Source: Isurus oxyrinchus
Lineage: Eukaryota
Direction: 5' to 3'
Assembly: GCA_026770705.1 (NCBI GenBank)
Contig: JANJGN010000210.1
Span: 682,001 to 746,000 of the forward strand
Length of the DNA: 64,000 nucleotides
Shown here: piece after piece, positions 4,154 to 61,409 of the stretch
How positions within the stretch are numbered: position 1 is the first letter of the stretch
Layout of the letters: the number at the start of each line of letters is the position of its first letter
Made by a program: the position numbers and the translations under genes
The notes under the pieces: model-generated
Seen by the model: the letters and a program-made list of their open reading frames with translations, nothing else
The model's database searches: none
What the model was told of the DNA's origin: nothing

Positions 4154-4657
4154 AATTTTTCTATCCCGGGAAGCCGAGGCCAGTCGCTGTGTAACGTAGT
4201 ACTGAGCTTTACAGTAATAGGTGGTAGTGCCTTCAACTCTCACATGCCAAATTTCCAACGAAAATGTCTTTTCTGTTTTATTCATTATTCATTCAATGTC
4301 CCCCTGCTGGAGATCCTCTCCCGCTCTGCCCCGGTCTGGGTTTGTCTGATGAAAAGCCCCGTTTGGAAAATATCCCAATAACCAGCATGGAAAACACAGG
4401 TGATGGTGAGAGACTGACACTACTTCCTGGTCACCGCTGCTGGGGTTTGTGCCACTGGCTGACTGAAATCTCCTGGAAATTAAACAGAGATAGTTTCATG
4501 GACCATCAGAGCCGAATCACAGAACCGAGTTAAACCCCCTGTCTGTAATTGGGATGGACCCGAGCAGCTTTATATGAAATCCACATAATGTCGGTTTGTG
4601 TGATCGGTACTCACGGGGTAAACAGACACACGGAGTGAAAACAAAGTGGATTCCCAT
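4154..4657 (-). pseudogene. NAR-TCR V segment pseudogene, unrearranged (leader exon 4657-4615, V exon 4472-4192, 22-23 spacer RSS 4191-4154)
   Basis: Leader MGIHFVFTPCVCLP followed by GTGAGT. V exon DFSQPVAQTPAAVTRK*CQSLTITCVFHAGYWDIFQTGLFIRQTQTGAERERISSRG(frameshift)MNKTEKTFSLEIWHVRVEGTTTYYCKAQYY is VNAR-type (short FR2-CDR2) with an extra FR1 Cys. Heptamer CACAGCG, nonamer AGAAAAATT. One stop and one frameshift. TATA-like TATAAA at about 4682-4687. Confidence 0.9.
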
Positions 4658-8636: not shown

Positions 8637-10912
8637 TGCATTATATGATATTATACAGTGTTATGGTAAATTAATGTCAATTACTTGCAGTTCCATGCTC
8701 AATCATTACAAGCTTTTATTCAAAATAGTTTGCCGCACATTTATACAGATAGTTTATTTGATCACTGAAATATGTATTGAAAGTTATGACATTGCCTGAA
8801 CAATAATTTGTTATATTATTGAACATTAGATTATATTCTAATATAGTGAAATGCAACCTAGTGTTTTACTGTTGTGTGGAATTAAAACGTATCATGGTGT
8901 GGTCAAATTCATTTTCGTGTCCTGCTCTTATTAGAGTGTCAGAAAATAAATAAAACAATGCAATCATGATGTTATATCAATCGTAATGTAAAAATACATT
9001 TAGTTTTTACATGAGTGTGCAGCGTGACTTCTGGAAGGGTGTCACAATTACGACATAGCGAGTTCCTGCTGGCAGTCCCCATTGTTAATGTGTTACGGAA
9101 TTGATTATGGGAAAGTTTAAGAGAAATACGTCGTGATTGAAGATTTTTATTCTATTATATGTTTGGCTTGTGCTGGTAGGTTTCCTACAATTTGGATAAT
9201 TACATTTCTTAAACATTAGCTTGATGTGGCTGCCCCTGTCAAGGCCAAAATGCATTGTCCATCTCTAGTTTGCACTTGGGAAGGTGGAGTTGCGCTTGGT
9301 TCTTCAGCCATTGCAGTACTTATGGTCGGGATGCTTCACAAGAACTTGAACAAATTTGAACGACGTATTTGACCCAAAGTTTGATCAAAGAGTTAGGTTA
9401 TGAGGAACATCCTAGAGAAGGAAGGAGAGACAGAAAAGTTGAGAGCAGGAATTTCAGAGATGAGGGCCTCAGCGACTAAAAGCATTACCGAGGCTAAAGA
9501 ATGATAATTTCAGGGATACACACAAGATTAGAGGTACGCCGAGGCCTCAGATAGTTGCAGAATGTTACAGCGCAGGACGTGGCTATATTATGGGGGGGGG
9601 GGGAGTTTAAAACTCGAAGGCCGAGGTTATTGAAACCCAGACGATGCCGAATGGGGCCCAATGTAGATCAGCGAGCATAGGGTTAATGGACGGACGGGAT
9701 TTGGTATGAATGTGGGTATCGGCAGCTGTCTCAAATGAACTTAAATTGGATAACTAGCCCTGGGCTGACTAAGTGACGAGAGAGCTGAGATTGTGATGGG
9801 AACGGATTGCAATGCCTTCTGGATTGACACACATCTAATCCAGAATTGGATGTTTTACAATTACCAATGGCTTTTGAAGATTTGTGGTCTAGAGATGGCA
9901 AAGGAACGGATTAGGAGGGGATCAGTAACTGATTGGATAAGGCAGTAAATGGTGTTTGCAGTTCACTCGGTAACATCTCACTCTTTTTATCCCTCACGTT
10001 CATCTATCACCTAACATAGTGGTGATCATAATCCTATCCCGAAGACAGTGTGGACTCTCCCGGTGCATCACCTACTACCTGGTGGCAATAGCAGTAAGCG
10101 ATCTCCTGGTCATTATCACTGCCACCATCCTCAACCGGATCGGCCGGATCTACTTTCGTGACAGTGTCCTGTCGACCACCCCAGCAAGCGCAGTCAGGAT
10201 CATGCTGGTCTTTGCCATGCAAGATGGCTCAGTCTGGCTGACGGTTGCCTTCACCATCGCCCGTTTCGTGGCCATCTGCTGTCAGGGCCTAAAGACCAGA
10301 TACTGCACTGAGAAAACTGTGGTGCTGGTTATAGGAGTGGTCAGTACCCTGAGGTGCGTCAAGAACGTCCCTTTGTACTTCGTCTGCCAGCCCTTGTACA
10401 TCCTGGACGGGGTGCCCTGGTTCTGTGACCGCAAATCCACCTATTTCACTTTCCCCGCCTGGCAGACCTATGACTGGCTGGACCGCATCTTAACCCCATT
10501 TCTCCCTTTCTTCCTCAGCCTGCTGCTCAATGTCCTGACCGTAAGACACATCTTAGCGGCCAGCAGAGCCCGCAAGAGGCTCCGGGGCGCCGAGAGTCAC
10601 AGAGACCCCGAGATGGTCAGTCATAAGTGATCCATTATCCTGCTCTTTGCGATTGCACTCAGCTTCCTCCTCCCGTGGGCCACCTATGTTGGACATTTCC
10701 TCTACATGTGGATTACAAGTAAGGGCTGCTTCAACAGCATGAACTTCAATGACCCTCAGTATATCCTCCAGGAGACAGCCAACATGCTGCAGTTAGTCAG
10801 TTCCTGCAACAACGTCTTCATCTATGCGGTGGCCCAGAAGAAGTTCCGAGAGGAGCTGAGGAAGGTTTTGATGTGGCCGGTCACCACGTTCACTGGCTGG
10901 TTTAAACGGTAA
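8407..10912 (+). pseudogene. GPR139/GPR142-like class A GPCR pseudogene (exon 1 8407-8476, exon 2 ~10011-10912)
   Basis: Exon 1 (ACG)HGPANGLFFATCYPILAIIGAP then GTAAG. Exon 2 ANIVVIIILSRRQCGLSRCITYYLVAIAVSDLL...SVWLTVAFTIARFVAIC...SSCNNVFIYAVAQKKFREEL. The start ATG is ACG, the acceptor is damaged, and there is an in-frame TGA at 10628-10630. Confidence 0.88.
8600..8633. repeat. (TA)n microsatellite
   Basis: Direct TA run. Confidence 0.95.
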
Positions 10913-30730: not shown

Positions 30731-31292
30731 CTTACTTTGCCCTTATGACAGGATGTTAAGGAAACTGGCCGACAGCCACAAAAGTTTAAACAAATCAAAG
30801 AACAAAGTCAGAAATTAAGGTAGAAAATCCTAGTCAGGCATCTATCTGCATTACAGCCAACACAGCTTCTGATGTTCTGATCTAATCAACTATTTTATCT
30901 GCATCCCATCTGAAAGGTGCATCTCCGGAACTGCAGTAATCCCTCAGTTCTGCACTGCAGAATTAGCCTGATTCACTGGGACTTGAAGCCAGAATCGCCT
31001 GATTTAGAGGCAACAGCGCCACCAAGTGACTCACCGTTGTCGCGGGGCAAGTAGAATATAAGTTTGGGTAACTTGGATTATTCATGGTTAATTTTTTACC
31101 ATTTAGGAAACAGCGGTGTATAAACAGGAAATAGAGGAGGAGTTAGGTTTCTGAAGGGGAAGATGGTGAACCCCAGCCTGACACTGGGTTCCAGCCAGTT
31201 TAAAAAGTGAACGGTTCAGTTTGAAATTAACAATCAGGAAGCGGTGTCGGGGAGTCTTTACAAGGCTGGAGAAACTTCTACCGAAAAAGCAA

Positions 31293-31761
31293 ATGATGGT
31301 GCTCTTCCTGTACCTCTGTTTGTTTCTAGTTAGCTTTACTTGTGAGTGCTGATCATTTATTGATCGTAGAGTCATTAATATTTTAAATATTCTGGTTTAC
31401 TTTGTTGCATTTTAAAATGTCTCTTTTCACCGAGATTTGCTCCTTTATAATTTGCTCGTAGGTATCCGGGCCAGCATTGTGCTAACCCAACCGGATTCCA
31501 TCTCCAAAAACATTGGTGACTCTCTCCAACTGTCTTGTGCGGTGAGTGGGTACAATATCAACCAACATCATATGCACTGGATTAGAGAGGTCGCCGGGGG
31601 AGGGTTGGAATCCATACTCGCTTATAGGAAAGGGTACAACACCTCTTACGCGCCTGGAGTTCAAAGTCGAATCACTTTTTCAACTGAATCTTCCACAACC
31701 TATGTTGAGTTGAATAATTTGAAAACCGAGGACACGGCCATCTATTACTGTGCGAGGCAGT
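31293..31761 (+). CDS. IGHV: Intact IgH-type VH gene segment (leader exon 31293-31341, V exon 31462-31761); IgW-like by eye
   Basis: Leader MMVLFLYLCLFLVSFT with a phase-1 GTGAGT..TAG intron. V reads CIRASIVLTQPDSISKNIGDSLQLSCAVSGYNINQHHMHWIREVAGGGLESILAYRKGYNTSYAPGVQSRITFSTESSTTYVELNNLKTEDTAIYYCARQS, open, with both Cys and the conserved Trp. Confidence 0.95.
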
Positions 31762-31800
31762 CACGGTGAGAGAAACCAAGGCTGGACCCAGGAAAAAACA
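31762..31800 (+). other. 23-spacer RSS of VH
   Basis: CACGGTG-23nt-GAAAAAACA. Confidence 0.88.
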
Positions 31801-32133
31801 GAACGAGGGGGAATCTAAACGCTCCAGGCAGAACACCTCGTTCAGAAACAATGTTCGTAATACAGTCTGACTCTGAACCTCGAGTTACCCCTTAACTAAT
31901 GAATTTCAGCAAAACAATTGTTTGCTTTCTCATGTGTATTATGTTTAGCAAAAATGTTTGGAGACCCAGGGGCTAACGTTTCAACAATATGCTATTGAAG
32001 GATTTTAGAAGGACTGGCGATACATTCCTATCAGTTGGAATGAATCTATCCTGAACACTTCTCATCGTTGACAGTAAAGCAAACGCTCGTGAAATGGAGT
32101 CTGAAAGTCAGGATTTGATCAGAAAGGGAATGC

Positions 32134-32208
32134 AGTATTTGTGCGGGCGTGTGTCACTGTGATACTATGGGGTGGGGTATCACATTACTAACTGTCAATA
32201 CAAAAAAC
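32134..32208 (+). other. IgH-type D segment (core 32162-32180) with 12/12 RSS
   Basis: AGTATTTGT-12-CACTGTG | ATACTATGGGGTGGGGTAT | CACATTA-12-ACAAAAAAC. Confidence 0.9.
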
Positions 32209-32536
32209 CCGACAGAACTTATAGGCTCAGTCTGGATCACTGACTGCGAGTATGAGTTCGCTATACATGTGGTGAAGCAGTGTTGATATTGTAATCCAGA
32301 ACTGAAACTCTCGCCGGGTTTAAGAGAGAGAGAGAGAGAACTGCTAGATAATTATTCAGGAATCAGTTGGTGATTGGAAGAAGCATTCAATTTGGGCAAT
32401 CAAATGAGGAAAGACTGATGTATAAACATGAAAATTAATTAAATTGTACCTTTGTTATGCTTTAGAAATCTATTGTTAGTTGTGCGATGTTACTTTCTAA
32501 AAGAATGGCCTCTTTCCTCAATTTTATGCAGGACCC

Positions 32537-32629
32537 ATTTATTGTGTGGCCCATTGCAGGGAATGTAACACAGTGGTACTGATAGCCTTGACTACTGGGG
32601 ACAAGGTACCAAAGTTACAGTGACGGCAG
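32537..32629 (+). other. IGHJ: JH segment (32576-32629) with 23-RSS and intact donor
   Basis: ATTTATTGT-23-CACAGTG, then TDSLDYWGQGTKVTVTA (WGxG motif) and G|GTAAG. Confidence 0.95.
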
Positions 32630-34059
32630 GTAAGAAACATGCACTATCTTAATAAATAGGTTATATTCCTGTCTTTATCTTAAATTATGTTTTTTTTTAA
32701 TTAATTACTTTGGCCATCCATTATGATTAGTGGGCTCTTTAAGTTTGAATGCAATGTTACTTGTGATTGTGCTCAAGGTGCTGTTAGAATAAAGCGACTG
32801 TTCCAGAGTAGGTGCCGGTCTGGGGTTGAACCTCTCACTAAACTGTTGATGTTATACGGACAGAATCTGACAACAGTAAACAAATGAGTTCTGTGACAGT
32901 CTATGTCTCTGGCCCTTTTCATGATATATTGATATTCTTTGAGATGATGTGATACCGTAGTATTGTGACAGAGTTGAACATTCGCGAATCTTCGCTGTGA
33001 AACACAGAACTATTTCAAATAGACCATTGCTAAGTCCGTCATTTGAAATACACTCCGAGAGCAGATCTGTTTTATGTCATGTTATTATGTTTTACAATGT
33101 GGATAATTTACCGCGAGCATCTAGTGAGAAAAGAATATTAGAATCACAGATCATTTCAATGTGATTTTATTGAAGAAAGAAAAGCATTTGCCAGTTGTGC
33201 GTAACTTTTGGAACGATACACGATATATTCATAAAAAAGCAAAATACTGTGGATGCTGGAAATCTGAACTAAAAACAGAAAATGCAGGAACAACTCAGCA
33301 CGTTTGGCAGCATCTATGGAGAATGAAACAAAGTTAACGTTTCGAGATCGTATGGCTCTTCTTCAGAGTTCTGACTCGAAACATTAACACTGTTTCTCAC
33401 TCAATTTGTTAATATTGATTAAGTTTATATTGGAAGCCCTAAATTGAACAGAGTGATGGAGTGTAGTGTGATAGCCTCTAAAACACAAAAGTTATCAGAC
33501 ACAAACAGTTGCAAATTTCACATTTGTTCATCTTATTAAAATACAGCAAACATTTACAAATTTCGGAGGTGATTTAGAGAACGATTTAAATTCGTTTTTT
33601 CCTAATATGTGAAATACGCCCTGAGAATAGACGGAGTTTATGCTATATCATTTTGTTCAAAAACATGTAATGTTTATAAGGGTGCAAGCAGATAGTAAGA
33701 CTGCTCATTTTAAATCAATGAAGTTGAATTTGCTTCAAGTAAAATAACATTAACCAAATGTATTCATATATTGAGTGGACACTAAATTTTTAATATTGAT
33801 AAAGTATCCTGTTAACCTAACTTGAACGGTAAAATCTCGCGAATTACCAGGCAGGAGCAGGATTGAAATTGATATTAACTAATACCTTTATAATACAGGA
33901 TACATGAACGAATGGATATTATCTTGCACGAATATTATCTGACAATAATTCGAACTTTTTATCGCATCAAACATAAACAACCTTCTACAATTTCATTGTA
34001 AACTGGCCAGGATTACCATGAGTGCAAATTCTGAAGGGTTGCAGAGAATATTTAATGAT

Positions 34060-38930: not shown

Positions 38931-39408
38931 ATCCTAAAATTGTTTAATTACTGAAATATTTAATTACATTATGATAAGCCAGTGGGCAATCTGCTTACAA
39001 TGTAAAGGTTTCCTAATTTGCTAACTTCTTCCACCTCAGAAAGCCCCTCTTCCAGACAGTAATCCCGCTGGCTGTGAATTACCGGATACAATTCTTTTTT
39101 ATAGAAACCAGATCTTACTCGGTTTGCAGTATTATCTAAAGGGAAGGAAACGTTATTCGACGTCGAAGGGAGGTTTTTAAATGAACAGCAGCTTAATTTA
39201 AGTGCTTGCAAACTTAATATTGTCGGAAATTTACCATTACTCAATTAAGATAAATTACCTTGTTTAATTTGACAAACAATAGAGATTTATCTGCCGAGAG
39301 CCAGATTGTTGCACCGTTGGTATCTGTTTCTGTGTGTCTGCTCTGTGTGCGGATCAGGAATCCACCCGGCTGGTTATAAACCTCTTAGCTCATTCTCGTG
39401 TATTTCAG

Positions 39409-39730
39409 ATAGTGCAGTTCGACACATTGATTCAAGAAGGTTGTATTTCATAGAAAGGTTAAAGCTTGACATAAAGCTTAAGAAGGCGCCTCACAAGCAA
39501 GATCAGTAATCTAGTGTCTGATAGATAGAAGGAACAACTTAGAAGCACTACATAAAAGGCATGGAAGAATCTCTAATCTGTTCAGAACCAATGCTGTTTC
39601 TGACCCACCGTCCCTTGGTGGGCCAGCTTAATGGAAAGCATTAAAGACTAGGGGGAGCTTAATGATCTCCAGCCAATCTTTTCTAAAGTTGACATTACAG
39701 CGTATGAGAGAACATTGTTATTTGGGCGTT
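39409..39730 (+). pseudogene. Putative decayed Ig C1-set (CH-like) exon
   Basis: Acceptor TATTTCAG. Mosaic of frames giving SVI*CLID..AWKN..DPPSL..NGK..KTRGSLMISSQSF..HYSV, in the B-, C-, E- and F-strand order of a C1 domain. Confidence 0.4.
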
Positions 39731-40049
39731 ACCCTGTCATCTGTCTTGTGTATCGAGGCAAACGCAGTGTTCAAGCAATGTTAATGTGCATCGACGTAAT
39801 AAGGTTGAAGACCTCGAGTCAGCAATATAATATAAATGGTTTCATCTCTCGTAAGAAATAACCAAACGTTAATGAGTTTAAACTTCCATCAAAGACTGTC
39901 ATTTTTAAATGAAGAGATTTATCTTGAATATCAGATAATTACTTCATAAGATTTGCCTGACCCTGAGCTCAATTTCAGAACAAAATTATTCAGCAAGTAC
40001 CTGTAAAGTCCCAGAAAGCAGCGCCTGTTAATCGTGGATATTATTCCAG

Positions 40050-40460
40050 CAATTTAAATGGACAGCATGGTGTTTCACTCAGTATCTAACACAGTAACCC
40101 ATGTTACATCTGCCCTGAGATTTTGGAGGGAACATTACTCTGTATTTAACGTGTGCTACACAAGACCTGGGGAATGTTCAATGGTACAGTGTAAAGGGAT
40201 CCTTGTTCTATTTATAGCCTGTGTTGCGCCTTACCGAGGAATGTTTGATGCAGACAGATTGATGGGACTTTATTCTCCGTATAATCAGTGCTTTACCTGT
40301 CCAAGGCGAGGTTGCTGGGATGGGATTTTACTCTGTATGTAACTGGCAATGTACCTGCACTGAGAATTTTAAATGGAACATTTGAGAGGGAATATTACTC
40401 TGCATCCAATCCGTGCCTGTACCTGCCCTGCGAATGCTGTACGAGGATCTTTACTTTATG
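40050..40460 (+). repeat. Degenerate ~55-68-bp tandem repeat (about 7 copies)
   Basis: ACTCTGTATCTAAC-like anchors at about 40077, 40137, 40205, 40272, 40330, 40397 and 40452. Confidence 0.7.
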
Positions 40461-40464
40461 CAGT

Positions 40465-40586
40465 GGCAGCTTCTTTCGATACTTAACCTATTCTTTACAA
40501 AGACATGAGTACTGACAGTTTGGTGTATTATTACTCTCTCTGAGACTCACAGTGATGTGGAGCAATCTCACCACCGTGCAAAAACT
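40465..40586 (+). pseudogene. 3' stub of a TCR V segment with well-preserved 23-RSS
   Basis: AASFDT*..DMSTDSLVYYYS(L)R resembles the end of 55887-56192. RSS CACAGTG(40548)-23-GCAAAAACT. The 5' part is replaced by the tandem repeat. Confidence 0.75.
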
Positions 40587-49295: not shown

Positions 49296-51927
49296 TCACC
49301 AATTAAATGAAGCAGTGAAGGTGGCGGAAGGGCACTTCAGCATATTCTTCAACTGCTCTCCGAACTTGGTCTGGGTCACTGCATAGATGAAAACATTGGT
49401 GCAGGAGCTGAGAAGCTGGAGCATGTTGGTTGTCTCTTGAAGGATGAATTGCGGGTCATTGAAATCCAGGCCAGTGAAATATGCCTCACCTGTAATCTGC
49501 ACGTAGATGAAATGTCCGACATAGGTGACCCACAGGAGGAGAAAGTTGAGGGAGATGACGAAGAGCAGGACAATGGACCTTTTACAGTTGTCCATCTCTG
49601 GATCTCTGTGACTCTCAACTCCCCAGAGCCTCCTGCGAGCTCTGCTGGCCGCTAAAATGTGCCTTACGGTCAGTGCATTGAGCAGCAGAATGAGGAGGAA
49701 CGGGAGGAAGGGGGTTAAGATGCGGTCAAGCCAGTCATAGACCTGCCAGATGGGCAATGTGTAATAGGTGGACTTGATGTTGCAGAACTAGGGCACCCCG
49801 TCCAGAATATACAAGGGCTGGTAGCTGAAGTAGAAAGGGACGCTCTTGACACAGCTCAGGGCACTGACCAGTCCTATAACCAGTGACGCAGTTTTCTCAC
49901 TGCAGTATCTGGCCTTCAGGCTCTGACAGCAGATGGCCACGAAACGGTCGATGGTGAAGGTGACCATCAGCCAGACTGAGCCATCTCGTGTGGCATGGAC
50001 GAGCATGGTGCTGACAGCGCACCCTGGGGTGGTGAAGAGGACACTCTCATGAAAGTAGATGCCACTGATCCAGTTGAATGTGACAGCGGTGATGGTGACC
50101 AGGAAATCTGTCACCACTATCACCACCAGGTAATAGGAGATGCATTGGGAGAGCCCGCACCGGCCACGGGATAAGATTATGATCGCCACCATGTTGACTG
50201 TGAGGGAGGAAAAGAGAGATATGTTACCGAGCTAAATCCAAACACCAGCTGCTACCTCATGCAACTTGTTAATAAAAAACCGTCCTCACCCGTGCCTGTG
50301 CCACCTCCTGACTCCAACCATTCCAAAGCCGTAACTGCTTGTTTGGCATCCAATTCTGGATAAGTGCATATTTGATACAATTAAACATTTGAGAATCAGA
50401 AGACATTGCCTTCAATCCCCACTAAAAACTCTGTTCTCTCACCACTGAGTCCATCCACCGAGACTTGAGGCCCTTTACAATCTTGGCGACCTGTTTGAGC
50501 CAGAGCTGCACTTCCAAACGTCCTCCGCCCTATGATGATCATCTTGCACCAAGACTGGTCACTTCCACATTTCTAATATCGACCACAATATCACACGTCT
50601 CAAAACTTGCCTTCGGTTAGCAGCTGCTCAAGGTTTCCCATACATTTGTAACATCTAGATGCCAACAATTGGAATAGTCTCTTGGCGTTCTCCCACTTTA
50701 GGTCATCAGTGATTTTAAACTCATCTGAAGCACTTGGTGGGGATATTCCTATTCACAGGAAGTCCCAATCATCCACCAGCCCTATGTTCGCCCACTTACA
50801 TTGGCTCCCAGCCTGGCAACACCTTGAATTTAGTATCCTCATCCTTGCTTTCAAATCCACCCATAGCCTCGTCATTACTTACTCCAGTAACCCTCTAAAA
50901 TCGTTTTGCTCACAGCCAATATCTATAATCTTGTGTACCCCAGAAATTAAATGTTCCACTGGCGGCGAAGTTGCCTTTTGCTGCCGTGGCCTTAATGTCT
51001 GGATATCCCTCCCTCAAATCCTTCGCCTTTCTTTCTTTCTACCAGACGATTCTCAAATCCTACTCATTCGATGAAGCTTTTGGTTATCGGTCCTCATTTC
51101 TCCTTATGTAGTTGATATCAAATTTTGTTTGTTAAATCTGCTGCGAAGCACCTTACCTCACCACACGGTCTACAGTGGTTGAAGTAAAAGCTCAACTCTA
51201 ATTTCTCAAGTGGAAACGAGCGATGGGCAATAAATTTTGACCTTGCCAACGACAGTAATAAATAAATATTATATTCTACTGCATAATAATAAATGAAAAA
51301 TACTACTTCCTTCCAGAGGTGGCACTGCTGATTCCTGCAATTAATGAGTGTACATTTGATATCACAATGCATCTAATGTAATTATTGCACTGTAAAGAAT
51401 CAGTGTAAATCATTGTAATAAAATAAATGCACGACAATGATGTTTAATACTCTGTGATACGCCATTGCTCCATACAATGTTAAAAACGCTATAATGCATT
51501 TTATTACATTGGAATGAAAGCTAATGTTTAACAATGTAACGTAATACTGTCCATACATTTTCATACATTATACTTCATAATTCAGCAACCCAACGGACGC
51601 TGTTTCTATAAACTTGCACCATAGATCATTAAATAATATCTTGCGCTGTTACATCATGCAAGTGGAATTCATAAACTATAAGTCACCGTAATGCAGTACA
51701 ATATCATATACTGCACCTCTATACAGGAATACAGTTCACGTTCCTTAAACTCAAACAGCGCTGAATATTAAAAAAAAGCCCCTTCCCGAAATCTAAGGCA
51801 CAAGTGTTCTGGCGACTTAAAAGAAAGTAAATAATTAATTTGGAGTCTATAACTTACCCGGGACACTAATAACAGCGAGAACAGGATAGTAAATAGCATA
51901 GACAGGTCCATTCGCTGGCCCGTGCAT
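49296..51927 (-). pseudogene. GPR139/GPR142-like GPCR with a single nonsense codon (exon 1 51927-51858, exon 2 50197-49296)
   Basis: MHGPANGPVYAIYYPVLAVISVP|VNMVAIIILSRGRCGLS..DGSVWLMVTFTIDRFVAIC..DGVP*FCNIK..SSCTNVFIYAVTQTKF. Canonical GT/AG. A TAG at 49788-49790 replaces the Trp seen in the paralog. Confidence 0.9.
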
Positions 51928-55663: not shown

Positions 55664-55886
55664 GTACTTTGTACAAGTTTCCATGCATTGTGTATCTCCA
55701 TGTGTCTGCAATCCCACAATGTTCAGGATTTTGTACAGCGCCCTCCGTGCTCTGTATCACTGCGTCTGTAATCCCACCATGTTCAGGATTTTGCACAACT
55801 CTCTCCGTGCTCTGTATCACTGTGTGTCTGTAATCCCACCATGTTCAGGTTTTTGTACGGCTCTCTCCGTGTTCTGCATCACTGTG
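55664..55886 (-). repeat. Tandem ~60-62-bp repeat, each unit carrying a 23-RSS
   Basis: RSS1 CACAGTG-23-ACAAAAACC (55886-55848); RSS2 CACAGTG-23-GCAAAATCC (55824-55786); RSS3 CGCAGTG-23-ACAAAATCC (55764-55726); degenerate fourth copy at about 55704-55664. Confidence 0.9.
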
Positions 55887-56192
55887 CTGTGGGCCGACTC
55901 AGTGCACAGTAATACACAGCGGAGTCGCTCAGTTGTAGTTTGAAGATATTTAACCGGCTGATTTTCTCGGCAGAATCGATAGAAGCAGAAATTCTCTCCC
56001 CGGCAGCATTTTCTTTATTCTCCTCTCCTGAAGTGTGTCTCTGAAGCAGATATTCTGGAGCCTGTCCTGGGGACTGACGGTACCAGTGTACTGTGTACTG
56101 ACAGATACCTGAATATTCACAGCTTAAAGTAACGGTGTCACCAGCAGCAGAGGTTTGTAAAGGCGGATTCTGGAATATCAGGAGACTGGAAC
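55887..56192 (-). CDS. TRDV: Intact leaderless supporting TCR V-delta segment of NAR-TCR (STCRDV-type)
   Basis: Phase-1 acceptor CCTTCAG, then GSSLLIFQNPPLQTSAAGDTVTLSCEYSGICQYTVHWYRQSPGQAPEYLLQRHTSGEENKENAAGERISASIDSAEKISRLNIFKLQLSDSAVYYCALSRPT. Non-canonical CDR1 Cys, perfect 23-RSS. No leader exon seen upstream; the nearest donor is the NAR J at 60038. Confidence 0.93.
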
Positions 56193-57971
56193 CTGAAGGG
56201 TGAAAAATGAACATTTTGTGTTTGTTTAGCTACTGCTGACATGGGAGATTTGTCAATCGCGCGAACAACTTTGTGTTTTTTATCTTGATTTGAAGCCTGT
56301 TCGAACGCTGCTCATTGTTACTGAAATATGATCAACTGGGGAATGAGGTGATATTTTCTCTTCCATAGCGAATTCCTCCGATCAGGGCTTCCCTATCTGA
56401 ATGGGTTTGGGGAACAGATTCAATAGTAACTTTCAAACGGGTGATGTATCTGTTCTGAAGCAGAAAAAATGCAGGGATATGGGGAATATGCATGAGTGGT
56501 GGAAACGATTGGATTACACTTTTAAAGGGACAGCACCTACACGATGGGCCGGATGTCATCTTTCCACGCTGCATGGTTCAATGATGTATATTAGATTTGA
56601 TTTGATTTTCCCCGCTGAGAGACAAACCCGAGGGAACTTCTTATTAACAGTGAAACAGTCAGTTTCGAAAAACTATTTGTCTGACAGTGACCCAGATATA
56701 ACGCATCAATGCGCACAGCAAACTCCAACAGAATGCGATTGCAATTCGTCAGCACCAATCGGGTCAAACAGATAGTGAATATCGATGGTGAAATGTCAAC
56801 CATTAGCTTCAGTTTCACACTTCTCAGGAGTTTCCATCTGCCTTTGGGTCTATTAGTTTATTTTTTTCGATCAATCTATGTTTCCACATTTCTCTTCAAA
56901 TTAAAATATTTACAGTTAGTTTCAGTTTATTTCTACATTTACTTTGCACTGTTTGTACGTCTTGCAATCGTGAGAACTTGTCCTAAACTCTCTTAGTAGT
57001 CGGTTGGGTTCAACCTGTTCAGTTTCCGCAGTGGTTTTACTGTTACTCACTGGGAACTGCCTCTTCCGGCTCTCTGACAATTTCAATTCCTTCCGCCCAT
57101 TGACTGATTCTTTCCGCTTTCTCTGGGCGGAGTTTTCTCTAAATTTTTCATTGTACTCAATCTGCAGGAGAGGGATCGGCCATTTGGCACAGTGATTTAT
57201 GCTGTGGGTATACTCCACAGCAGTCTCCCCAACCCGAAACCGAATTGACCATTTCCATCCGTATTTCTTTCTCCCTCCTGTATTTTCAGCCTTCCCATAA
57301 ATCCATCAATAATGTCTGCTCCAACCACTCAGTGTGGCATCAAGTTCCACATTCTGACGGTTTTAGTGTACATTTTTCTTCTTAATGTCTTTGTTCTGTT
57401 AGTGACGACCTGATACTAATGTCCTACTGATCTAGGCTCATCCATAGGCACGCACTCTATTAAACCCGTTCATAATTTTAAAGATTTCTCTGAATTCTCT
57501 TTCTGGTTCTCTGTTTTCCAAAGTTAAGTGACCCAGACTTTTCAATCATTCCAGAGAGATGTGTATTTTTGCTGATTCCTTTTCCCAGCAATTTAAGTAA
57601 TCAATGCAAAGAATCTTACAAATAGAAGCAGGGATGGCCATGGCAACTTACAGACCTGTTCCGACGCCAATAATAACGTGGATGATCTTCGATGTAAGCA
57701 TCACATTCCCATATTCCTAGATTATTTTAATAATCAAAAATCTATGGAACACTGCCTTGAATACACTCGTCCACTGAGTATCCACAGCTCTCTGAGCTAT
57801 AGAATGCAACAGGTTCACAACAATAGCCTGGGGAAACATCCAGTCGTATCTGCCATGTGAGCCGTTGAGAATATGATAATGAGATCACCTCACATTCCTC
57901 TAAACTACTCTTATGAAAGTACAATGAGTTTAAAAATATTTTTCTCGTTTATTGTGCAGTGTGTTAATGGG

Positions 57972-58842: not shown

Positions 58843-60038
58843 CTGGAAGTTGCTTGATTGGTTTGGAGTTGATCAATCTGAAGCCTACCAGAAGAAAATT
58901 TAATCCAGGAGTTACTGTGAGGGGTTTTTAAGTGACGAGAGTGCAAAACTTGTTGCATCCATGGCACACACCATCTGCACGTCATAACACGAGGCAATGC
59001 GGGCTGTCACGGCTTCACCTTCTTCTCATAGGATAAACCATTTAACTCAGGAAGCTGCCTGACGAAACTTTGTTCACTTCCTTCAAGGCATGTAGATGTT
59101 TTCTCAATTATGAATATAAAACTTTACACAGCATCCAGACTGGAGTCCAGTGCAGTCCTTCCCACAAACAATACTTCTCTCAATTGTTTTGTAATACCGA
59201 GGGGTACTGATTCATCAGCTGAGGTGGCGGTTTGTGCATAGGTGGCAACCAGCCGGAGGTTTCCTTCCTATCATTGGCCTGATGCCATGAGACGTCCTGC
59301 CATGGAAGTTAATGTTGAAGGCTCCAAGGACAACTGCTTGCTGACTGTATATCACCTCGCTACCACCTCTGGGTCTATCATGCTGGTGGCCCAGGTCATA
59401 CACAGGGATAGTGATGGTGCTGGATAAGACATTGTCTCTAAGTTATGATTCCATGAGTTTGATTCTGCCAGGTTGTTGCCTGACAAATATGTGGGAAAGC
59501 TCTCCCAGTTTTAGCACATACCTCCAGATGTTAGTAAGGAGGACACTGCAGGATGGACACGCCTAGGTTTACCATTGTCATTTCCGAAGCCTAGGTCGAT
59601 TACAGGTGACATGAAGGTGGTGTGGTTCATGGTTTATCCTTTTTTTAGACTTAGTAGCCATTTGATTCAAATAAGTGACTTGCTTGGCCATCATTTCACA
59701 AAGCACTGAAGGGTAAACCACAATTCTTTGTGTCTGAAGTTTTATGTAGGTTAGACCAGGTAAGAACAGCAAATTTCCTTTGATTAAGTAGACTAGGGTG
59801 CTGGGCGGCTTGCAACAATCGGCAACAGTTTCATGATCACCATACTAACAACAGCTTTTAAATCCTGGTGTTTGAATTCCACCAGCTGCTGCAGTGAGGT
59901 TTGAACCAGGGTTAACACACAGAGGATTGACAGGGTGTCTGGGTTATTAGTCTAATGACATTACCACGAGGCCACCCTTCCCCATGGCGATTATTTGCCT
60001 GGATACTTTGCAACACGTCACGGTTTGGAGTCACTTAC

Positions 60039-60383
60039 CAGCTGTGACAGTCACCTCTGTCCCAGAACCGTCTGCATAACCATCTTTCCAAATGGAACCA
60101 CATCCATATTTATACTGAGCTTTACAGTAATAGGTGGCTATGTCTTCAACTCTCACATCCCGAATTTCCAGAGAAAAAATATTTTCTGCTTTATTCATCG
60201 ACACAACAAATCTACCCCCACTGGAGATCCGCTCCCGCTCAGTCCCAGTCTGGGTTTGTCTGAAGAAATGTCTGTCCTATAAACGATGAGAATTACCATG
60301 GAAAATGCAGGTGATGGTGAGAGACTGACACTCCTTCCTGGTCACCGCTGCCGGGGTCTGTACCACTGACTGATTGAAAGAGC
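60039..60383 (-). pseudogene. Pre-joined (RSS-less) NAR-TCR V-D-J exon
   Basis: GSFNQSVVQTPAAVTRKECQSLTITCIFHGNSHRL*DRHFFRQTQTGTERERISSGGRFVVSMNKAENIFSLEIRDVRVEDIATYYCKAQYKYGCGSIWKDGYADGSGTEVTVTA|G GTAAGT in one frame. TAG at 60277-60279. The leader donor is mutated and the leader truncated at about 60525-60545. Confidence 0.92.
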
Positions 60384-61409
60384 CTGGCAATTAAACAGAG
60401 AGAGTTTAATGGACCATCAAAGCCAAAACCCAGAACGGGGCTAAAACCCCACACAGTGTCTGCAATTGGGATGGATTCGGGCAGCTTTATATAAGATTTA
60501 CACAATGTCAGTTTGTTTGATCGGTATTCAGGGGGTAAACAGGGGCTGCTCTTGGAGACTGGGGCTCAGAGCTGGACTGAAATACTTTAGAGCGTAGAGT
60601 TCCTTTGCAGAGGGCTGTGTCCCGCGGAGCATTGACAGGCCACATGGTTCCCATCTCTCTGGTAGTGTGTTGTGTGAATAAGTGACAGAGTTAAAAACGG
60701 AACCTGCAGTTTCATGTTGCTTCCTTGGGCCTGTGAGCCTGATGTGAAGTCCCCTCTCCCATTTGTCTGATATTCAGTGCCCTGCGTAATGGGGCAAGGG
60801 AGGTGGAGCTGTTTCTTAGTGAAGTCTGCCACCTTCATTCTCCCACAGTAATGAGCCTGCAGGTCGGTCCATATGTGTTTGGCAAATGGTATTTTATGAG
60901 AGTGGGATGTGAGATAATCCCTCCTTCCCCAATATTATTCTAACTGTCATGAAAAAACAGAAAATGCTGGAAAGAGCTCGGCAGATCTGGCAGCATCTGT
61001 GAAGAGTGAAACAGAATTAACGTTTCGAGTTTGTATGACTCTTCTTCAGAGTTACCTGTGCTGGAAATTATGAAACATCTCCCTGAACTGGCTGGTGGGC
61101 CTTCAGTTGAAAGTCCGTGCCAAGGGAAGGAGCCTTACACCTGCCTTAGTCCAGCATCTGAGTATCAGATTACAATGTGAGACAGTCCAGTGACTTTGCC
61201 AATATTCAGGCGGAAGAACAGAAACACCACAAAGAATAAACTCTCCACTTCATTGAAACAAATGCTTGCTGCACACCTTCCCCTGTGACTTGCACTTAAA
61301 ATGATGTTTCCAGAAAGCAGTGTTTCTTTCCAGGTCTGGACTATTCAGAGTTTCAGTTGTAGTGTTAGAACATGAAGTCACACTCAGAGGGACAGTTGAA
61401 ATGGGGGTG

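Follow-up and report, generated by a model that had tools for sequence, protein, structure and literature searches.

The elasmobranch IgM minicluster has the order VH-D1-D2-JH-Cmu (passages of PMC5192425, PMC2193156 and PMC2435157), and in thymocytes of the nurse shark RAG commonly yields V-DD-J as an intermediate, according to the relevant part of PMC2435157. Partly germline-joined shark IgH clusters are also established, as sections of PMC5192425 and PMC2193156 document. Excerpts of PMC5931798, PMC12227049 and PMC3457774 further establish that IgM or IgW V segments of sharks are joined to TCR-delta D-J-C, and portions of PMC3457774 and PMC5278385 describe tetrapod VH-delta (frog, bird, platypus), in which the TCR alpha/delta region has taken in an antibody V. 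Parts of PMC12227049 report VH segments in linkage with shark TCR alpha/delta, and also describe an antigen receptor complex with TCR V exons between IgH clusters.

The window analysed here is a stretch of 64,000 nucleotides (C210:682,001-746,000) in an assembly of 4.98 Gb. Around it, IgM miniclusters, NAR-TCR cassettes and TCR V genes are intermixed, and the region fits the complex described in those parts of PMC12227049. A first, sequence-only reading of this DNA had placed an inverted VH-D-JH cassette in a TCR delta/NAR-TCR region. NAR-TCR and TCR V sequences are indeed present, but the setting is not purely of that kind: a complete IgM cluster begins 82 kb downstream of the cassette on C210. 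The cassette itself comprises the following features.

31053..31292, plus strand: promoter and 5' UTR, homologous to those of hybrid clusters with IgW V and IgM C; TATA-like TTTAAAAA; in 10/10 copies
31293..31341, plus strand: leader exon MMVLFLYLCLFLVSFT with a phase-1 GT donor; open in 10/10 copies
31462..31761, plus strand: VH exon, IgW-type, open; WIRE/GLES in FR2; Pfam V-set E 2e-10
31762..31800, plus strand: V 23-RSS, CACGGTG-23-GAAAAAACA; nonamer weak
32134..32161, minus strand: D 5' 12-RSS; flank of IgM D1 type
32162..32180, plus strand: single D, likely an inherited D1-D2 fusion; its start resembles D1 of L133
32181..32208, plus strand: D 3' 12-RSS, CACATTA; flank of IgM D2 type
32537..32575, minus strand: J 23-RSS, IgM type
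32576..32629, plus strand: JH, IgM-type, WGQG, DSLDYWGQGTKVTVTA; GT donor at 32630

We found the leader, V, D and J to be open alongside GT/AG splice sites. The layout of the signal sequences (23>, <12-D-12>, <23) occurred in 0 of 200 shuffled windows, scored against the RSS consensus. The sequence-only reading had described an open leader, VH, D (12/12) and JH with plausible RSSs, and all are present as described; it had also seen one D only, and one D is what we found, with two-D IgM clusters serving as the comparison. The light-chain-interface substitutions that it had pointed out are both there: the FR2 signature (WIREVAGGGLES) carries WIRE and GLES, whereas WxxQ and GLEW are kept by the shark IgM and IgW V regions compared. 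We take these changes to fall at the light-chain-facing positions Q39 and W47 (Q39E, W47S).

Ten of 40 DNA matches are copies of the cassette at 96-100% identity. C26 carries five of them; the other five, which probably represent the second haplotype, are spread over four small contigs, C210 among them. The copies are segmental duplicates, 87-99% identical over the 20 kb compared, and the locus thus has the recent-duplicate status that the sequence-only reading had named as telling against it. Two further units, of 12 in all, keep the downstream breakpoint described below without the part corresponding to window 7,978-39,202, which includes the cassette. Contigs from other species (four runs, three organisms) cover the cassette at ~92-99%, and the single D is spanned in three runs, by contigs of three species. 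An assembly artefact or a somatic rearrangement was rejected on the strength of the ten copies and the presence in three other species. One contig of run X2 (window 31751-32593) joins a V end to a J with 33 other letters between them, at lower depth, and probably stems from a fully germline-joined IgM paralogue of organism B, not from the cassette. Run X7, one of five putative RNA runs of the same species, gave a single 55-nt match that continues into IgW-paralogue sequence, which speaks neither for nor against expression.

The V segment resembles those of IgW. It is 64% identical to horn shark IgW V W26 (P83907), and it is identical at 54-60/95 positions to IgW V of the genome, at 51-53/95 to IgW-type V on IgM C and at 44/95 to canonical IgM V. 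The phylogeny that had been proposed as a check (34 rows, 95 columns) places it inside the starred shark IgW-type V clade with support of 96/97, away from the positional TAILV candidate. With that Ig-like V upstream of D-delta, a TAILV candidate by position only, the cassette V shares 34-36/95 identical residues, and a tree constraining it to group with this candidate by position was 36 lnL worse (p-AU 0.066). The cassette V is probably not a TAILV. A word-limited protein database search, weak evidence in itself, returned no close annotated orthologue; the PDB matches are generic VH.

The promoter and leader gave a local alignment score of 151.5 with the C146 hybrid cluster (shuffle maximum 58), against 52.5 with canonical IgM and 50 with IgW. 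The J and its flank are of IgM type, and the D and J flanks lie nearer to IgM than to IgW. Measured against an IgW cluster, the cassette has an IgW-type V and lacks an IgW promoter/leader, D, J and multi-domain C. Measured against an IgM minicluster, it has the V 23-RSS and the JH 23-RSS with donor, in one orientation within ~2 kb, together with an IgM-type J and J-C intron, and lacks two D segments and a Cmu within 20 kb after J. The lineage is old, since at synonymous sites its V lies 0.6-1.0 from the closest V of IgW and of hybrid type. Hybrid clusters, which carry an IgW-type V on IgM D1-D2-J-Cmu1-4, form a large family in this genome (~35 V matches, on C20, C38, C42, C49, C100, C146 and other contigs, for example C146:231,711-245,153); their C exons were checked in five clusters, one of which has stops. 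C88 (for example 662-687 kb and 947-975 kb) holds five IgW V matches, and the two IgW clusters examined there have three D and 8-10 C exons, the latter showing internal duplications.

The single D is likely an inherited germline D1-D2 fusion, because it combines a D1-type 5' flank with a D2-type 3' flank. The flank comparison drew on 20 IgH loci, which comprised 7 distinct two-D clusters that were parsed, 3 duplicates and 10 unparsed loci; in 7/7 parsed clusters the 5' flank of the cassette D scored higher against D1 than D2, and the 3' flank higher against D2 than D1. The V-to-J distance is ~0.84 kb in the cassette. Among 35 other IgH loci measured (2 unparsed, some clusters counted twice), 33 have 1.22-1.25 kb, and the shortfall amounts to about one D1-D2 interval. 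The inner D1-D2 segment is gone. A germline RAG join is the likely cause of the fusion, with ordinary deletion, as at C20:77.086 Mb, as the alternative; the coding end of D2 has changed too much for the join to be proven. Elsewhere in the genome, a broken hybrid IgM pseudo-cluster shows a clean germline D1-D2 join with the D1 5' and D2 3' RSS intact (C20:76,722,190-76,722,213), and a hybrid IgM cluster at C20:77,086,012-77,086,850 has lost D1 by ordinary deletion and has degenerate D2 RSSs.

No functional C lies within 20 kb of J in any of the ten copies. This agrees with the sequence-only reading, which had seen no functional constant region; the finding that it had named as telling against it, functional C exons spliced to the cassette J, did not appear within that distance. 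We searched with 19 C exons of the same genome as protein, as DNA and with one HMM, and these IgM, IgW, IgNAR-like and C-delta queries gave no credible match in the window or within 20 kb of J in the ten copies. In intact IgM clusters of the genome, Cmu1 lies ~5.5-11 kb after J. The decayed C-like exons reported downstream were not confirmed: tblastn, blastn, HMM and motif scan showed no decayed C exons after J, and the actual content is IgM intron remnant and TCR V tail. A very long J-C intron, suggested by C1-set exons 95-105 kb downstream, was likewise rejected, as in the copy examined these exons are part of a separate, complete V-D1-D2-J-Cmu cluster, and every one of the ten copies is followed by such a canonical IgM V at 79-93 kb. 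The features between J and the breakpoint are as follows.

33608..33679, plus strand: IgM J-Cmu intron remnant; own copies aside, matches the C210 IgM J-C intron only
39323..39534, plus strand: IgM J-Cmu intron remnant; own copies aside, 6/6 matches are IgM J-C introns, 68-72%
39921..40029, plus strand: last IgM J-Cmu intron remnant before the breakpoint; own copies aside, 6/6 matches are IgM J-C introns
40126..40436, no strand assigned: decayed satellite of 69-bp period at the junction; staggered 66-72% matches to a tandem array in IgW introns
40480..40586, plus strand: 3' tail of a broken TCR alpha/delta V of a conventional leadered family, with its 23-RSS; likely marks the breakpoint that removed Cmu

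The comparison of the intron remnants covered 1.2 Mb of DNA from the genome, with their own copies set aside. The three remnants are collinear, in order, with IgM J-Cmu introns, and the counterpart of the last one in the C146 cluster lies ~1.7 kb before Cmu1. The TCR V tail consists of the last ~70 nt of a V, contains a stop, and is 72-77% identical to intact GDSVTQ-family TCR V loci across V end, RSS and 3' flank. The junction of IgM intron and TCR V tail is common to the 12 duplicate units. From this junction, we infer that the IgM intron was likely fused to a TCR V gene, by deletion or translocation, at a point ~1.7 kb before Cmu1; the sole bound on its date is that the loss of C is older than the 8-12% divergence among units. 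Together, these comparisons of sequence make it very probable that the cassette represents the 5' half of a minicluster of IgM type, kin to the hybrid family, that lost its Cmu by fusing into a TCR V.

C-delta matched at two places, C26:29.90 Mb (minus strand) and C242, and had no match on the window's contig, C210. Each C-delta is preceded by one D found (12/23) and 11 or more J, and D-delta carries a 5' 12-RSS that is compatible with the 23-RSS of the cassette V. The five C26 copies lie on the plus strand, opposite C-delta, on the V side of D-delta and 1.2-8.8 Mb away from it; joining of V to D-delta would therefore be an inversion. The cassette had been called inverted, and so it is relative to the NAR-TCR segments of the window and to C-delta on C26, but it shares its orientation with the TCR V remnant 8 kb downstream. 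This orientation is not peculiar, since NAR-TCR cassettes, including those near D-delta, lie both ways. The TCR-delta D-J-C blocks at C26:29.90-29.93 Mb and C242:590-619 kb are 84-92% identical in DNA around C-delta and may be either two loci or very divergent alleles; in both, an Ig-like V, the positional TAILV candidate, lies ~5 kb upstream of D.

The window also contains two NAR-TCR features.

55887..56205, minus strand: NAR-TCR supporting V-delta, open, with tandem 23-RSS repeats
60034..60390, minus strand: NAR-TCR V(D)J exon, already joined in the germ line and interrupted by a stop

The first of these shares 98% identity with a protein of Carcharodon carcharias and 79-88% with proteins of Cetorhinus, which points to a lamnid shark as the likely source of the DNA. 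Supporting V-delta segments have a 23-RSS that is repeated in tandem 3 to 7 times in a 62-bp unit (window 55701-55886, minus strand, and C210:668.9-669.3 kb). NAR-TCR sequences at C210:746.3-747.1 kb and 839.5-840.2 kb are apparently V-D joined, and one at C26:29,979,513-29,979,869 is fully joined and open. A decayed NAR-TCR V with a D-like RSS pair (window 4199-4600, minus strand, and 1255-1261) is paralogous to the cassette at 60 kb, and two broken receptor-like ORFs, at window 9974-10909 (plus) and 49299-50231 (minus), are 77% alike in DNA.

We propose, with a probability of roughly one half, that RAG can still use the cassette V, devoid of a constant region within 20 kb, to supply TCR-delta with a V of antibody type through trans-rearrangement. 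In the germ line, D1 and D2 would have fused in an IgM-type minicluster with an IgW-type V, and a deletion would have taken Cmu and fused the IgM intron with a TCR V gene. The step proposed for thymocytes is a join of the V 23-RSS to the D-delta 12-RSS by inversion over 1.2-8.8 Mb, and its product, VH-Ddelta-Jdelta-Cdelta, would pair with TCR-gamma. With such a partner, Q39 and W47 would no longer be tied to a light chain. The D and J of the cassette, present because they were inherited from the IgM minicluster, would be passengers, and V-D-J joining within the cassette a dead end. V-only use by inversion to D-delta was one of two uses that the sequence-only reading had offered: it is mechanically possible (23-RSS/12-RSS), and the open frame in all copies lends it weak support. 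Against a V donor stand the weak V nonamer, the inversion over megabases, the lack of a C-delta match on C210, the frameshift in organism B and the deletion of the cassette in 2/12 units.

Those last two points would be expected if the cassette were a neutral relic: a decapitated IgM cluster without a role, multiplied only by riding in large duplicates with functional IgM and NAR-TCR cassettes. We regard this, the main rival, as possible but less likely than a V donor. A canonical IgM V lies 79-93 kb downstream on the same strand in 10/10 copies, consistent with co-duplication, and both runs of organism B show the +1 frameshift in V at full contig depth; the V frame of organisms A and C, however, is open over the covered part. 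Against a relic, leader and V carry zero stops or frameshifts in 10/10 copies, where ~3.4 disabling events were expected from intron and flank rates with repeat-tract indels dropped (P 0.033; 4.4 expected and P 0.013 with these kept). A relic's frame would still be open through the slow change of shark DNA. Recent dN/dS is near 1, as a relic would have it: the V codon variants among the ten copies are 20 amino-acid-changing and 6 silent, the rate of variable sites is 0.09 in V and 0.09 in introns, and the window compared with L010 gives 1.08. Such values do not discriminate neutrality, because functional IgW paralogue pairs give 0.56-1.79. Across species, the dN/dS proposed as a check came to 0.55 (13 N / 7 S), below 1 but with P 0.15; on the cassette V branch it is 0.37 at dS 0.43, a value that favours a V donor but may reflect time before the loss of C. 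The long V stem in the tree and the loss of Q39 and W47 fit relaxation, and the intron remnants are no more decayed than intact IgM families are among themselves (0.67-0.73 versus 0.66-0.71), so that C loss may be fairly recent. The RSS and D columns, in turn, weigh against a relic, varying less than non-coding columns (8/153 versus 336/2805, P 0.005, over a baseline inflated by far-upstream flank).

Two further explanations would keep the rearranged VDJ itself in use. In B cells, the whole V-D-J might rearrange in place and obtain C by inter-cluster switching in the J-C intron or by a ~93-kb splice to Cmu1, which we consider improbable. None of the RSSs has been lost, the J donor and ~7 kb of intron from IgM are likewise retained, the downstream IgM V is on its strand in all ten copies, and isotype switching between shark clusters is described in parts of the review PMC5192425. 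Yet a complete V-D-D-J and many other segments intervene, J varies at 4/54 sites with an indel in one copy and no separate constraint evident, and RSS spacers are off by one in 4/10 copies (a 22-nt V spacer in one, a 13-nt D spacer in two and a 24-nt J spacer in one), the 24-nt J spacer recurring in organisms A and B. The light-chain face, moreover, carries Q39E and W47S, where the compared shark IgM and IgW V keep Q and W. The suggestion of the sequence-only reading that the whole VDJ is kept thus fares poorly, as D and J are without demonstrated constraint and their RSS spacers drift. A double-V receptor like NAR-TCR or TCR-mu, with the VH-D-J exon spliced to a downstream supporting V-delta, is most unlikely. 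NAR-TCR cassettes flank the site, and 8 kb downstream the strand of the VH holds a V tail whose 23-RSS is good, but that tail is ~70 nt of a conventional leadered family, has a stop and sits behind a satellite, and the intact supporting V-delta segments, both those of the window and those near the most divergent copy, are on the opposite strand. A NAR-TCR-type double-V cassette was rejected, as no intact leaderless supporting V-delta follows the VDJ on the same strand.

A bolder form of the V-donor reading, which we hold to be a long shot, is that the locus is a VH-delta in the making: a hybrid cluster decapitated into a TCR V array, its light-chain face remodelled for TCR-gamma, amplified to about five copies per haplotype and serving as a dedicated T-cell V of an ancient HHMHW lineage of frogs, tortoises and lizards. 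The cassette V has a VH motif, GYxIxxHHMHW or similar, in common with horn shark IgW W26 and with V regions of sturgeon, frog, tortoise and lizard (motif proteins P0138, P0157, P0211, P0213, P0104, P0168 and P0083), and the HHMHW tetrapod-type rows (n=5) form a starred clade. The cassette V and the tetrapod HHMHW VH group together at 92/97 in one tree and stand apart in another; a constraint to HHMHW monophyly was 7 lnL better than the free search (p-AU 0.64). The lizard member argues against a TCR-delta-only lineage, because squamates are without gamma-delta T cells according to parts of PMC12698447.

In several related sharks one can still read the donor's promoter, D, J and intron, together with a breakpoint that falls within a TCR V gene. 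As the cassette V lacks its own constant region, a transcript with it would have to be a product of trans-rearrangement or inter-cluster switching, and it is thus a clean marker for both; if silent, the cassette would be an ordinary orphan of birth-and-death among the antigen-receptor genes of sharks. Deiss reportedly described in 2019 a defective IgH cluster within TCR-delta of the nurse shark, in which case the arrangement would be known in kind. The combination of hybrid V, fused D, readable TCR V breakpoint and tenfold amplification did not appear in the literature searched, which lay outside the key papers and supplements; table S1 of PMC12227049 gives white shark coordinates that may bear on novelty.

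Compared with the IgM minicluster as described in the passages cited at the outset, the cassette shares the single V, the 23/12/12/23 RSS logic and the IgM-type J and J-C intron, and its spacing fits a V-DD-J product; it differs in its IgW-type V, fused single D, missing Cmu and fusion to a TCR V remnant. Horn shark W26, the closest named sequence, has HHM and YRKxYNT in common with the cassette V, but W26 is an annotated IgW chain that keeps WVKQ/GLEW, whereas the cassette has WIRE/GLES. With Ig-TCR-delta trans-rearrangement (excerpts of PMC5931798, PMC12227049 and PMC3457774) the cassette shares an IgW-type V, a 23-RSS, a TCR-delta-linked complex and the match to the D-delta 12-RSS; unlike the known donors, it has no constant region and for that reason cannot make its own antibody. 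Like TAILV, its V is Ig-like, lies in the TCR-delta V region (five C26 copies), has an RSS compatible with D-delta and lacks its own constant region, but it comes with a D and a J and falls among the V of IgW. As in tetrapod VH-delta (portions of PMC3457774 and PMC5278385), an antibody V has come to lie in a TCR alpha/delta region; in contrast to VH-delta, the cassette keeps IgH D, J and intron, lies inverted and megabases from D-delta, and its use with C-delta is putative. From its sequence, we conclude that the cassette is neither a complete IgM or IgW cluster nor a NAR-TCR-type cassette, and that, if it acts at all, it would act like a VH-delta.
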